DNA of 63,393 nt, counting the filler, from Globobulimina sp. (Eukaryota), in NCBI GenBank assembly GCA_003354225.1. It is 47 parts of 47 records of this genome, joined end to end, with 100 filler letters (N's around TTAATTAATTAA, not from the genome) between each part and the next. Parts side by side here need not be neighbours in the genome. Positions count along the whole stretch, not along the records: positions 33,790 to 35,040 come from PIVH01020103.1; 46 more parts are not named here. The stretch is one strand, 5' to 3'. Under the pieces are notes generated by a model. It was not told the origin of the DNA. It saw nothing but the letters and a program-made list of their open reading frames with translations, and did not search any database. Every line of letters starts with the position of its first letter. The stretch's first letter is position 1. Positions 2,470-54,966 of this stretch are shown here, piece by piece. The position numbers were made by a program, and so were the translations under genes.

Positions 2470-2880
2470 ATTATTATATTATTGGTTATTGCTCCAATAT
2501 CAAAAATATGAAACAAGTCAATATGAATACTGTTCAAAATTTGCATATGGCAAGAAATTAGAAATACGTACGGCAAACCTTAAAGTAGAGCGTCTCTCTT
2601 TGTANNNNNNNNNNNNNNNNNNNNNNNNNNNNNNNNNNNNNNNNNNNNTTAATTAATTAANNNNNNNNNNNNNNNNNNNNNNNNNNNNNNNNNNNNNNNN
2701 NNNNAAATAAAAATAAAATACCAATGAAACTTCTACGTTGTCACAGATATAGCTTTCCAACTGTCAGATAGAATGAATTATCATTATTTTGTTGTTTCAT
2801 TTTAAACATAATTAAAACTTTTCTTAAGATTTTTATAGTATGTTGCAAAAAAAAAACATAAATAAATTATTTAATAACAA

Positions 2881-3425
<545 letters not shown>

Positions 3426-3503
3426 TCAATATATTTGGAGAGGATTAAAGTACGACGCACGCTTTTATGTTACAACGAAAACGTTTTAGTAAACTATCTG
3501 GCC

Positions 3504-3956
3504 ATGTTTCTTGTGTCAGTGTTCGGCATACTTTTGAGCGAAATATGTTATTCAGCAACAACTGTATCAATCGATGGTACCAATTTCAAAATAAATAATG
3601 TTATAACCTATAATTCTGCATCCAATGCAAATCTCAAAGGATTAATGTTTAATTCTAGAATGGTACAAGGAATATTTGACGATTATAATGAATCTACAGT
3701 GCATAATTGGGATTATCCAGATACAAAGAAATGGGATCCAGATAGAAACGTTGATGAATTTGTTGGAAATATGTCATTGTGGCGAGAAAATGGTCTTTTA
3801 TCATTTACTGTCGGCTTAGTATGTTAATAATAAATATAATATCTCATATATATGCATATATAATATCAATTAATGTACACGTAGCAAGGTGGTTGTCCAT
3901 GTATGTTCAAATTATATTTATCATCACATACAGCATAGTACACACACTTACATACA
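3504..3956 (+). CDS. Secreted bacterial-type putative glycoside hydrolase-like protein, 3' truncated; introns 3819-3884 and from 3901
   Basis: Signal peptide; GLMFNSRMVQGIFDD, YPDTKKWDPDRN, WRENGLLSFTVGL|QGGCP after splicing. Confidence 0.7.
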
Positions 3957-14872: not shown

Positions 14873-15262
14873 AGCTGTTCATGCAGTTTATCCTTTGCAC
14901 TAGCATCTTGAAACTTTTTGAATGACAAACCCTGTTCAGTAACGGCTTTGATCACTCTGTCAATTTGTGGATCTGGAACTCCTAGCTCAGTGGCTTTGGA
15001 AGTCAGACAAGACAGAAAATCAGTAACTTGATTTTCGCTGCCTTTGCGATACTCAATTGTGTAATCGAAAACAGTCAATATTTCAAACCAGCTCAGAAAT
15101 TTGCTCAATTTTCGACCATTGGTATACTGTCGCAAAAGTGTAGTTAATGGCTGGTGATCTGTTCTTAGTGTGAACTTGCGACCCGCAAAAACTTTTCCCA
15201 ATATTCACAGAAATGGACTGCACCTAGGGCTTCTACATCTAGTGTGGAATATTTTCTCTGTC
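14873..15262 (-). pseudogene. Ty3/gypsy LTR retrotransposon RNase H fragment, frameshifted
   Basis: QRKYSTLDVEALGAVHFCEYWEKFL then frame change near 15187 to GRKFTLRTDHQPL...FDYTIEYRKGSENQVTDFLS. Confidence 0.85.
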
Positions 15263-29736: not shown

Positions 29737-30952
29737 TATTCAATCTCTTTATAAATGATGCTACTGAACAATTAAAGCCAGAAGGAACAATTAAACTCTA
29801 CGCGGATGACTCAAAATTATATCGTATTATATCAAATCCTAATGATGTCAGAGCTCAACAAGATGATCTAACAGCGTTGCAAACTTGGGCTGACAAATGG
29901 CAATTAAAATTCAATGTGGAGAAATGCTCAGTATTACAATTAGCATCAAGAAGAGAACCAAACGATTATTTTCTACGAAATGAACAGCTAAAATCAACAA
30001 CTTCCGAACGTGACCTCGGTGTCTACATCCAAACAGACCTAAAACCTCATGAACACTGTAAAAAGGCAGTCGCAAAAGCAACTATGACATCGATGATGAT
30101 TAAAAGGACGTTAGGACATCGAAAGGAGACCGATCTACTTAGTAATTTGTACCGAACATATGTCCGACCTCACCTTGAATATGCGAGCTCAGTGTGGTCC
30201 CCCCAATACATAAATGACATTGACCTAGTAGAAAGTGTACAAAGAAGGTATACAAGAAATATGCCTGCATTATGGGGACTCACGTATGAACAAAGACTCC
30301 AGCGGCTCAAACTACAAACATTAGAAGAAAGAAGGTTTATAGCTGATTTGGTACAGGTTTACAAGATTTGCCACAATTTAGACGTTTTGAAATTTGAAGA
30401 TTTTTTTAAACTCAATGACACCCAAACACGAGGTCAACACCCCCTAAAACTACAAAAAGAACACACAAATTGTTCGGCCAGAGCTCATTTTTTCTCTGTA
30501 CGAGTGGTCGATTCCTGGAACTCACTACCCGCCTACGTCGTTAATGCTAAATCGGTTGGGACTTTTAAAGAAAAATTAATGAAATTGGATGTTTGGCACA
30601 TCAATGAAGGCAAATGGCGCATCGGTTCAGCTACAACAGACTAAACACAGATATTTCGCGCATTTGATGGCCTGAGGGAAAACGAAAAATTTATTATATT
30701 ATTTTTAATTATTTATACAGTATTATAGGCTACAGTATTCAAATACTAATCAACGCATCACGCTATTTTTTAATGTTTATTATGACAAAAACTGTGTTAA
30801 GTTTAAAGGTTGCGCTAGTCGTTTCCTTGTTTCAGACGTGTTTATGAAACCTGTTTTAAACTATGTTGATTCTAAGATGTACTTCAATTGTTGTTATTAT
30901 GCTTTCTTCGCATTTGTCTGACCTAAAACCAAATAAATACATACATACATAC
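29737..30952 (+). mobile_element. CR1/L2-group LINE 3' end: RT C-terminus (to 30644), 3' UTR and (ATAC)n tail
   Basis: FNLFIND, KLYADD, WQLKFNVEKC, ERDLGV, VRPHLEYASSVWSP, FFSVRVVDSWNSLP; AAATAAATACATACATACATAC near 30931-30952. Confidence 0.9.
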
Positions 30953-33470: not shown

Positions 33471-33790
33471 CTTTTTTTTTCTTTCTTTTTTTTTCTTTCT
33501 TTCTTTTTCTTTCTTTTTTATTTTTACAAGTGAATATTTTATAAAATCTATCTAAAGCAAGTCAGTGCATCATCAATTCTTTGACAATATTTTTTTGTTT
33601 ACACCAATCGTGATTTTTTTGTTGTATAAACCTTATAAAATTCACCTAAAATCGCCTATAAAATACACCATAAAATGCCAATGCAATTANNNNNNNNNNN
33701 NNNNNNNNNNNNNNNNNNNNNNNNNNNNNNNNNTTAATTAATTAANNNNNNNNNNNNNNNNNNNNNNNNNNNNNNNNNNNNNNNNNNNNC

Positions 33791-34936
33791 ACGACGCGTT
33801 TAGTGCAAAATCATGTTTTGAAACAAAAAGAGTTTGATTATTGGTCCATAAATAGGTGCATAAAAAATAAAAATATGGACACTTATTATTGTAATAAAAA
33901 TAAAAATTTTGATGAATCCACGGCAATGTGGACATTATTAAAAGCTAAATATTCAACGTATAAATATCAGCAAATGAAACAAGCATCAAAATCCAAAAAT
34001 AATTCCATGGCATCGGACCCAAACACTTCTCAATTAATTGAGCCATTATCCTTTGATCAAATTGCTGCCATATTCCTATATACAACAAACTATATTTACA
34101 AAGATCTTCGCGCGGATTTATCTGCCATGAAAGCGACTTTTGCCGATTTTATCGTTGAATTAATTGTTGGTATTAACAAATTACCCATGGTTTGGCACAA
34201 AACCTATCGTGGATTCAGTGGTGGATATTTGAAGCGAGATCCTCAGTTTTTTAAAGATTACAAAAAAGGCAATATTTTACGATGGGATTCGATGAATTCG
34301 GCATCGCTCAATCAAGATGTTGCTAAAAATTGGGCGGGCTCTGGATATGCAGTTGAAATCGAGGCATATCACGGAAGGGATATTATGCCTTTTTCTATGG
34401 TTCCGGGCGAAGCCGAGGTTATTTATATCATATCGTCACATTTTCTGATTACAGGGCAGTATGAATATGGCGGTCGAACCTGGTTTAAAGCGAAAGAAAT
34501 GGCATTTCCTTGGAATGATAAAGCTGTTTTATGGGTTGACGACAAACCGGAAGGCAATAAAGCTTTGATGGAGCGGTTAGAGCGCGAAGGCAAAATGGTA
34601 ATACCTCGCGTCTCCACAAAACAAGCTATGGATTTCTTGAAATTTATGAAGGCCTTTTTTTTAGATAATAACCAGTTCCATAAATACAGAATTGTTTCAG
34701 ACATGAAACGATTCGAGAAAGCCAATGAAGAGGACGAAAATAGTAAAATTATCACGGATAAAAAAGCTGGAGCCACACTGGTGCATCAATTAAGGAAACA
34801 AGGCTATCAAAACGAAGTTTGTATATTTACAGGATATGCTCCGCATGCTATTAAGTGTTGCGATGAGTTGGGCTGTACACAAAATATAATTGCTACAACC
34901 AGTACCGAAGAGTGTTATACATTTTGCAAATATTAA
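33791..34936 (+). CDS. NAD:arginine ADP-ribosyltransferase domain fused to C-terminal response-regulator receiver-like domain, 5' truncated
   Basis: ART: AIFLYT, TYRG, SAS, EAEV; REC: VLWVDDKP, IVSDMKR, AG..LV..LR, CIFTG. Confidence 0.85.
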   Translation, partial: TTRLVQNHVLKQKEFDYWSINRCIKNKNMDTYYCNKNKNFDESTAMWTLLKAKYSTYKYQQMKQASKSKNNSMASDPNTSQLIEPLSFDQIAAIFLYTTNYIYKDLRADLSAMKATFADFIVELIVGINKLPMVWHKTYRGFSGGYLKRDPQFFKDYKKGNILRWDSMNSASLNQDVAKNWAGSGYAVEIEAYHGRDIMPFSMVPGEAEVIYIISSHFLITGQYEYGGRTWFKAKEMAFPWNDKAVLWVDDKPEGNKALMERLEREGKMVIPRVSTKQAMDFLKFMKAFFLDNNQFHKYRIVSDMKRFEKANEEDENSKIITDKKAGATLVHQLRKQGYQNEVCIFTGYAPHAIKCCDELGCTQNIIATTSTEECYTFCKY

Positions 34937-35140
34937 TCATTGAATAATGTGTAGATTAATATTGTCCACATACCAATATGTTTTATATAAGACTGTTGTA
35001 TGTGTGTTTGTATATATTATTCATTATTATAATGTCATGTNNNNNNNNNNNNNNNNNNNNNNNNNNNNNNNNNNNNNNNNNNNNTTAATTAATTAANNNN
35101 NNNNNNNNNNNNNNNNNNNNNNNNNNNNNNNNNNNNNNNN

Positions 35141-43243: not shown

Positions 43244-44227
43244 CGTGTATGGTACGATGGGCAAAAGGAGGAAAATGTACTGGACAATGCGGGTCCTTTT
43301 TATTGTGGCATGTCGGTGGTTATGATAATGCCAGCATTTAGCATTCGACTTAACGGTCCCACATCAACCACTAAACAACCGCAAATTGCTATGAATTTTG
43401 CGGAACATTCGGGCATTATAATTCAATTAAATAATAAGTATGCTGCAGGAGGATATGAACAACCATTTTTTAACTCCTCCTGGCTTTCAAATTATAGCCA
43501 AGAAGATGAGCGAATTACAATGGGCGGATGCTTTCCAATACAAATAGAATCGATCAAACACGTTGCAACATCAACTAATTTTGCTCCATATTTTGGACCA
43601 TTGTTTTGTTTTGATGCCATAATATCTGGATTGGATATAGATTTTAAATGGAATAAAAAGCAAATATTCACATTGAAATCTTTTATTAATTATGTAACCG
43701 CACCAATTGCAAGCAAAAAAGGTAAATTTGAGGAGTATATATTGGATACATTTGCTTATTACTTAAATAGTAAACAAACGCTAACTTTTAATTTATCATT
43801 GATTGACCAATACGTTCCGGCACAAGTCAAAGATTTAATATTTGTTTCAATAAATGGGGAAAGCGATAGCGATAATATTGTTTATGTGGATAAGTCGAGT
43901 AATGTAAATATACCACGGCCAGAAATATTAAATATGTTTGAAAATATGAAGAAATTAGTCATTTATTCTACAGATGTACGTGGTAAAAAGTCATATCCGA
44001 TATCAATAAAATATTTATTGAGTCAGCTAAGTACTAGTAATGATGTAAAATGTGTCATTACTGCGAAGTGGAAAGATCTTATGGCTAAAAAAGAACAAAG
44101 ACGCAGCTGGTTATTTTATCAAGATATATCCGCCTCAATTCCGAAACATTTCATGTCATCTTTAACAACTTTCATTGACTATCTCCAGAATTATAATGAT
44201 TTACTAACTATTCAATCACCACAATAA
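43244..44227 (+). CDS. Divergent ART-like domain protein, 5' truncated
   Basis: PFYCGM, GPTSTT, AMNFA..SGIIIQL, WLSNYSQEDERI occupy the R / S-T-S / E-x-E positions of R-S-E ARTs. Confidence 0.6.
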   Translation, partial: RVWYDGQKEENVLDNAGPFYCGMSVVMIMPAFSIRLNGPTSTTKQPQIAMNFAEHSGIIIQLNNKYAAGGYEQPFFNSSWLSNYSQEDERITMGGCFPIQIESIKHVATSTNFAPYFGPLFCFDAIISGLDIDFKWNKKQIFTLKSFINYVTAPIASKKGKFEEYILDTFAYYLNSKQTLTFNLSLIDQYVPAQVKDLIFVSINGESDSDNIVYVDKSSNVNIPRPEILNMFENMKKLVIYSTDVRGKKSYPISIKYLLSQLSTSNDVKCVITAKWKDLMAKKEQRRSWLFYQDISASIPKHFMSSLTTFIDYLQNYNDLLTIQSPQ

Positions 44228-54043: not shown

Positions 54044-54966
54044 AATGTTGCAGGACATCGATACAACATCCTTATGTATAGACACAACATCCATATGCAT
54101 TATCAGAATGGTTTTCATATCCAATCAATGATTTAAATGATGCATCTGTACAACAGATAATAGTAAATTCAATAGAATCATTATCAATTAATGGCATGTT
54201 TCATATCCCAAATTTTCTATCAAATGGTGGTTTATCATTGTTTCAACAAAAAATGACTTCAATTCAACATAAACGAAATCGACAACAACGCACAAAAAAT
54301 GTATTTCAAGATTTAGGTGATTTAAATAATTTTGATTCAAAACATCCAAGAAATTATATCAACACATTTTTGATTGGTTTTGTTGGTCGAAACAGTTTAA
54401 GCAAAGAATTTATTTCTTTTTATGAATATGAACCTTTACTCGATTTCTTCAAACAAATACTGCTAAATGCGCACCATTTGAACAATGATACATTTGATTG
54501 TCAAACATATACTGATTTATGTTTATCCGCCGCAAAGGAAGGCAGTGTGTACGCCTATATTGCACAAAACGGAGATTGGGGGCAATGGCATTTTGACCAA
54601 CATCCTTTTTCATGCGTTTGGATGATATCTAAACCACAGAAAGGTGGACAGTTAAAATATAAATATACGCCACCTATAAAAGGTGACAGCAATGCAAATT
54701 ATTATGATAAAAAAGTAGGATATGATTGGCAGAAATTATCTAAAATTATAATTGAGGACAATGAAGAATATTTTCATCGATTGAGTGCAAATGAAGGCGA
54801 TGTGTATTGCTTTAAAGGCAATATTACGGTACATATGGCTGAGCAAGTTTTTGGTGAGAAATTGAGATCTGTGTTGGTTACGACCTTTGCAGATTATCCC
54901 AATTTTAATCATATTCCAGAAATTGATAAGGTCAATGATTGGGGTCAGAATAAACATGAATTGTAG
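54044..54966 (+). CDS. Fe(II)/2-oxoglutarate dioxygenase (BesD/HalD-related hydroxylase-type)
   Basis: WHFD, KPQKGG, GDVYCFKG, VH...R jelly-roll motifs. Confidence 0.75.

Follow-up and report, generated by a model that had tools for sequence, protein, structure and literature searches.

An ARTC-type ADP-ribosyltransferase fused to a Lys-less receiver-fold domain in Globobulimina sp., with relatives of the fusion in bdelloid rotifers and of the receiver in bacteria

The locus and its contig

We analysed a window of 63,393 nucleotides from the Globobulimina sp. assembly GCA_003354225.1, in which 47 contigs, each about 1250 nt long and unrelated to one another, are joined by N linkers. The contig PIVH01020103.1 (window 33790-35040, 1251 nt) carries on the plus strand a single stop-free frame at 33791-34936, which is open from the second base of the contig. 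The closest full-length relatives have 100-330 aa more upstream than this ORF. The following features were assigned, with the supporting evidence in parentheses.

33791..34936, plus strand: 5'-truncated ORF of 381 aa and a TAA stop (helical region, ART, receiver)
33791..34039, plus strand: N-terminal helical region, aa 1-83 (structural alignment, model)
34040..34504, plus strand: ARTC-type (R-S-E) ADP-ribosyltransferase (ART) core, aa 84-238 (PF01129, 6dre, 6drh, conservation)
34208-34210, plus strand: R140 (TYRG)
34298-34300, plus strand: S170 (S170-A-S)
34409-34411, plus strand: E207 (E207-A-E209)
34415-34417, plus strand: E209
34514..34933, plus strand: Lys-less receiver-fold domain, aa 242-381 (alignments, model, structure search)
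34538-34543, plus strand: D250/D251 (W248-V-D250-D251)
34700-34702, plus strand: D304 (S-D304-M)
34709-34711, plus strand: R307 (D+3)
34829-34831, plus strand: T347 (F-T347-G)
34901-34903, plus strand: S371, followed by T372, at the canonical Lys position
34937..35040, plus strand: A+T-rich stretch of 104 nt from the stop to the contig end, probably the 3' UTR (sequence)

Since the window joins unrelated contigs, the genes on either side of the ORF are not its neighbours, and their use as its genomic context was rejected. Among the proteins encoded on the remaining 46 contigs are ubiquitin-conjugating, SMC, symplekin, PH, and EF-hand proteins. The ubiquitin-conjugating enzyme gene (window 2705-3956, minus strand) contains a GT-AG intron of ~80 nt, either retained or reflecting genomic sequence, which indicates that the source is eukaryotic. 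The genes on these contigs may suggest a foraminiferan host. The GC3 of the ORF contig (0.30) is typical of the window, and so is its codon fit, which ranks 15th of 33. The first-pass annotation had regarded the host origin as unproven because the ORF lacks introns. This absence is uninformative, since stop-free frames of at least 379 aa occur in 10 of the 47 contigs. The gene is of eukaryotic origin, as its codon usage is typical and its receiver nests among ART-linked receivers; the same two results contradict a bacterial contig.

Several other contigs carry features of separate interest. A 327-aa frame at window 43244-44224 (plus strand) has the ART-like motifs PTSTT and QEDER. It gave no match to Pfam or PADLOC and a weak one to the ART-receiver profile (hhalign probability 2.5%, E 0.019); judged by its motifs, it possibly represents a divergent ART family, and it resembles what we take to be foraminiferan expansions. 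At 29739-30641 (plus strand) lies a LINE-type reverse transcriptase fragment (RVT_1, E 4.7e-5), and at 14875-15204 (minus strand) a retroelement piece with no Pfam match, whose motif is presumably a gypsy-like RNase H. At 54082-54963 (plus strand) the sequence matched HalD (halogenase D) of Pfam with E 1.8e-8, which is unusual for a eukaryotic dataset.

Two folds and their conserved residues

The ORF matched PF01129 with E 2.4e-6 (27.5 bits, above the cut-off of 22.3). Its best solved ART relative by sequence is PDB 6dre (E 1.5e-5), with which the R-S-E residues align; 6dre and 6drh are structures of an interbacterial toxin, presumably Tre1. With 88 relatives of near-full length chosen as input, a structure model reached pLDDT 92.8 and pTM 0.90, and its aa 44-238 superposed on 6drh with Z 20.2 (rmsd 2.1, 182 aa aligned). 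The ART fold is shared with 6drh, HopU1, XopAI, and ART2.2 (Z 20.2, 17.2, 17.1, and 17.1, respectively), as are the R-S-ExE residues and the ARTT loop pattern, whereas the C-terminal receiver sets the ORF protein apart from these four, to which it is 17-25% identical. The region from about aa 11-44 structurally matches the helical part of ARTs of the ART2.2, HopU1, and 6drh type. An NCBIfam search of the protein returned XopAI at E 0.016 and nothing else, and neither a PADLOC model nor a phage match was found for it.

Among the 88 aligned relatives, the catalytic residues are kept in 82 (R), 79 (S), 85 (E207), and 85 (E209), so the R-S-E triad that had been noticed at TYRG, SAS, and EAE is intact and stands within an ART fold. 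ExE has been described as the arginine-modifying ARTT pattern (PMC11281641). This pattern, taken alone, suggests that the ART would modify arginine; mainly NADase activity instead of arginine transfer could also be the case.

The C-terminal part was not convincing as a receiver by sequence alone. PF00072 matched the isolated domain with E 0.034, which is below the cut-off, and no Pfam receiver match was obtained with the whole protein; the best receiver match in the PDB by sequence had E 1.1, and Atlas scores of 0.88-0.89 serve as a lead only. The model gave a clearer result, in that aa 242-381 form five beta-alpha units of the flavodoxin-like type, with an acidic beta-hairpin insert at aa 307-323. 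A structure search with the model matched many receivers at Z 11-12.8, including PorX (Z 12.8, rmsd 2.3, 112 aa) and FixJ (Z 11.8, rmsd 3.0, 113 aa), and an earlier model from 6 sequences had shown the same two folds. Thus, the modelled structure makes the receiver fold clear and real, and the earlier description of a CheY-like domain with WVDD, VSDM, and IFTG holds for both its motifs and its fold (Z ~12), although the Pfam comparison did not reach significance.

Most of the receiver pocket is conserved. D250, D251, and D304 are present in 86, 87, and 85 of the 88 relatives, and W248, N256, T276, and both metal-binding Asps are near-invariant (83-87 of 88). Arg at D+3 (R307) is found in 87/88, while the position of T347, after beta4, is occupied by Thr in 56 and Ser in 4 (T/S in 60/88). 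Lys at the canonical column, which follows beta5 and is normally succeeded by Pro, occurs in only 10/88, and S371 occupies that position in the ORF protein, in agreement with the first-pass remark that no Lys was obvious. The Lys position was assigned by alignment of the family profile to RcsC and by the family alignment, that is, by sequence and not by structural superposition; in the profile comparison R307 corresponds to the Met of D-x-x-M-P and Ser371 to the Lys. As judged from these alignments, R307 is a candidate pocket residue. The ART and receiver residue sets are both intact in 71/88 relatives.

A pseudo-receiver has been defined as a receiver fold without at least one of the five catalytic residues (PMC12632262), and by its aligned residues the ORF receiver fits this definition, as Lys is absent. 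It is like the pseudo-receivers treated there in this respect and in its orphan status, and differs from most of them in that the whole acidic pocket is kept, an Arg is added at D+3, and the clade is coherent rather than decayed.

Eukaryotic fusions and bacterial receivers

A single-sequence search detected 5 relatives and a profile search 85, of which 28 are named as bdelloid rotifers, including two on 18-20 Mb Adineta vaga contigs. The fusion also recurs in independent assemblies at 76%, 60%, and 54% identity and is therefore real. A proposal that the protein is a protist effector is borne out as to eukaryotic origin but not as to a restriction to protists, since bdelloids have it too. When the receiver alone was searched against 1.84 billion representatives, 61 matches were obtained. 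Of these, 41 carry an ART immediately upstream, 18 are fragments whose start lies at or within the receiver, and 2 have a different N-terminus; an ART thus directly precedes the receiver in 41/43 informative relatives. These representatives appear to be eukaryotic, as suggested by their partners (ubiquitin, PH, SAM) and one EukProt entry. The distance from the last ExE to the receiver Trp is 35-49 aa in 34/41 fusions, with 3 outside this range and 4 unmeasurable. A 'longer' search, for which the receiver served as profile, yielded only 6 out of the 8000 candidates scored. Further domains were found on ART-receiver proteins (P0042, P0055, P0051, P0032, P0124, P0119, and P0145), namely NMNAT-like, rhodanese/dual-specificity phosphatase, PDZ, HINT/ubiquitin, trypsin-like, and GTPase domains, and two Adineta steineri proteins add the NMNAT-like domain with E 3.4e-4. 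The recurrence, the spacing, and the added domains indicate that the fusion is a stable, repeatedly decorated module. Databases label the eukaryotic fusion proteins only as ARTs, and Pfam misses the receiver in the query and most relatives.

A hydrophobic stretch was present in 1/88 relatives, and no signal peptide or delivery domain was seen in the relatives. In P0003, P0007, and P0120, a short domain with a G-S-V/I-x-I motif lies upstream of the part matching the ORF. We take it to resemble SEA domains, and a Pfam SEA match was absent from P0007 and P0120. Such a SEA-like domain may be what the 5' truncation of the contig has cut off.

Bacterial relatives of the receiver were collected by scanning GTDB for the pattern LWVDDxPx[NG]N. 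At least 599 stretches fitted it, of which 371 could be confirmed, and the 80 best of these 371 were retained. The pattern itself fixes W, DD, P, and N, whereas D304 and R307 lie outside it and are kept in 79/80 and 80/80 of these members. Auto-ADP-ribosylation was rejected as the reason for R307, because this Arg is invariant in the 80 bacterial members, none of which has an ART domain. The T position is loose (T 25, A 33; T/S 34/80), and the six most frequent residues at the Lys position of these 80 do not include Lys. The receiver is C-terminal in 77/80 and is preceded by a hydrophobic segment in 63/80. Its partners among the 80 members are SIR2 (two), TIR (one), KAP (two), WD40 (two), caspase (one), Macro (one), Ser/Thr kinase (two), wHTH (three), and DUF4062 (three, below cut-off); NAD-linked partners amount to 4 firm and 3 weak cases. 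No PADLOC model exists for the receiver, and no phage match was found for a bacterial receiver of the clade.

In a quick unrooted tree of 97 rows (12/70 rotifer-type, all 45 other ART-type, and 40/80 bacterial receivers, with no canonical-receiver outgroup), ART-type and bacterial receivers were split at SH-aLRT 98, and the ORF protein (P0001) fell inside the ART-type side; an unrooted tree gives no direction of transfer. An assembly chimera or bacterial contaminant has a negligible probability: the contig is short and 5'-truncated, but this tree split, the window-typical codon usage, and the recurrence of the fusion in the other assemblies and on the long Adineta vaga contigs all argue against an artefact.

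Some bacterial loci lie in defence-related surroundings. The E. coli member, an orphan TM-receiver gene found in 28/5426 E. coli genomes, lies in an accessory island (L001:3577-6366), and the island ATPase has PADLOC similarity to the defence ATPases PDC-M01A/AriA; the island appears by resemblance to adjoin guaA and to hold an IS remnant. In a Rhizobium plasmid member, the receiver ends a vWA protein encoded next to MoxR and near a CBASS cyclase. At five loci (L004, L010, L011, L020, and L031, near 6000), a TM-receiver gene adjoins FAD-oxidase and/or 4Fe-4S/CCG genes of the glycolate-oxidase type, an arrangement that is a recurring insertion site. Among 95 co-oriented neighbours at 52 bacterial loci, no recurring signal-making enzyme was found, and many of these neighbours are housekeeping or unannotated, so that only some loci have a defence context. 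Three Shewanella proteins (L021:5497-6357, L033:3998-4858, and L063:5410-6339) have a wHTH-TM-receiver order. If they follow the ToxR/CadC topology, as we assume, the receiver would be placed outside the cytoplasm, and by this analogy the three receivers are probably extracytoplasmic, likely as periplasmic sensors.

The receiver on P0147 and on the Rhizobium plasmid protein is carried by a SAV_2336/vWA protein, as in the vWA-MoxR ternary conflict effectors (PMC7159879). In the available part of that paper, the receiver is mentioned only as a sporadic effector and no kinases are noted among the effectors; ART fusions and eukaryotes appear in the present family and not there.

Control of the transferase

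Gating by a His-Asp phosphorelay, as proposed in the first-pass annotation, was not upheld. In such a relay, comparable to the Detocs effector DtcC, a kinase would phosphorylate D304 and thereby activate the ART. The DD, D, and T residues are present in the ORF protein and Arg could replace Lys, but Lys is rare at its column (10/88) and R307 near-invariant (87/88). A histidine kinase was found in 3/80 bacterial loci (flanks up to 6 kb, often shorter) and in none of the 95 co-oriented neighbours, so that the bacterial relatives are orphans. A kinase regex found 1 of the 3 confirmed kinases, and the remaining two, which lie at locus edges, were detected by phmmer and a three-sequence profile; divergent kinases may therefore still be missed. 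For orphan regulators the kinase is often encoded away from the regulator gene, and a receiver that has lost its Lys may still be phosphorylated (PMC12632262). Many histidine kinases are reported in ciliates and Cercozoa, whereas none are reported for animals or Reticulomyxa in the available part of PMC6324907, which does not mention rotifers, and the fusion is expanded in animals, namely bdelloids (28/85 named). Taken together, the missing Lys, the orphan status, the three probable extracytoplasmic receivers, and the lack of reported kinases in animals and Reticulomyxa make relay control unlikely, and we assign it a small probability.

Detocs shows that immune effectors can be gated by receivers, which speaks for the relay reading. 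Its anti-phage effector DtcC likewise fuses a receiver to a toxic enzymatic effector; its receiver is N-terminal, and it has a cognate operon kinase and needs His-Asp transfer (10.1101/2023.01.24.525353). The ORF protein comes from a eukaryotic host and has an ART as its effector, with a receiver that is C-terminal (as in 77/80 bacterial relatives), orphan, and without Lys. The Detocs operon has DtcA as its sensor kinase and DtcB as a stand-alone receiver, whereas here a eukaryotic single gene is found.

The receiver may instead be a structural cap or dimerisation module, in which an internal D304-R307 salt bridge plugs the pocket and the ART is only stabilised, dimerised, or constitutively restrained. 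The lost Lys, the loose T position, and the fixed ART-receiver spacing would suit such a role, and there is precedent in GlnR and RamR, whose Asp serves dimer formation and not phosphorylation (PMC12632262). We consider it somewhat improbable, as the metal-binding Asps, W248, N256, and T276 are near-invariant, the receiver module is reused on many unrelated domains, and the second acidic residue, which is lost in about 80% of pseudo-receivers (PMC12632262), is kept here.

Alternatively, the receiver could itself be an enzyme, a cREC/HAD-like phosphoesterase acting on ADP-ribose or a nucleotide product, so that one protein would both make and clear the signal. The near-invariant Asp triad with Arg has a catalytic look, some members are fused to a Macro, SIR2, TIR, or NMNAT-like domain, and for cREC domains, which are receivers without a kinase, an action on derivatives of ADP-ribose has been predicted (PMC7824862, PMC9503650). 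The ORF receiver resembles cREC in having a receiver fold without a kinase in an NAD+-related context. However, the cREC profile PF20274 matched 1/15 members (E 0.046) and not the query, cREC was described from phages whereas this clade has no phage match, and the TM-only and wHTH-TM fusions suit a sensor better. An enzymatic receiver thus appears rather improbable. The iREC domains are inactive receivers of conflict systems that have lost the Asp, which the ORF receiver keeps.

The explanation we favour, tentatively and at a little under even confidence, is that the receiver works independently of a kinase, takes up a phosphate-bearing ligand or donor, and thereby gates, in cis, an arginine ART. 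The protein would be a cytosolic NAD+-dependent arginine mono-ADP-ribosyltransferase held against its C-terminal receiver-fold domain, which would switch it on and off with no histidine kinase involved. The remodelled pocket, which retains the acidic triad but not the Lys and has gained an Arg at D+3, would bind a phosphate-bearing small molecule such as a nucleotide or NAD-derived signal, or might take a phosphoryl group from a small-molecule donor. Occupation of the pocket would shift the packing of the ART against the receiver and so license the ART to ADP-ribosylate or to consume NAD+; its role would most likely lie in stress signalling or in cell-autonomous defence. The short fixed linker and the pTM of 0.90 suggest that ART and receiver function as one unit, and ligand binding by pseudo-receivers has precedent (PMC12632262). 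A wider proposal, possible but doubtful, is that the D-M-x-R Lys-less receiver has an unrecognised role in bacterial conflict systems, where it would sense nucleotides or phospho-metabolites, or process them as an enzyme. Eukaryotes would have captured this domain and joined it to an arginine ART, with a later expansion among protists and bdelloid rotifers.

Both component domains are already known. No description of the ART-receiver fusion or of its receiver clade was found in full-text searches of the literature, although supplementary lists of domain architectures may show the fusion. If the receiver gates the ART, receiver domains would gain a novel mode of input; their regulation outside the phosphorelay was called unresolved in a 2025 review (PMC12632262). 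Bdelloids would then own a working receiver within the animals, a group reported to be without histidine kinases, and the finding would point to a single-gene bacterial family of TM-, SIR2-, and TIR-receiver proteins that can be assayed directly. If the sensor reading of the D-M-x-R receiver is true, a kinase-independent, receiver-gated ADP-ribosylation immune switch would be common to bacteria and animals.
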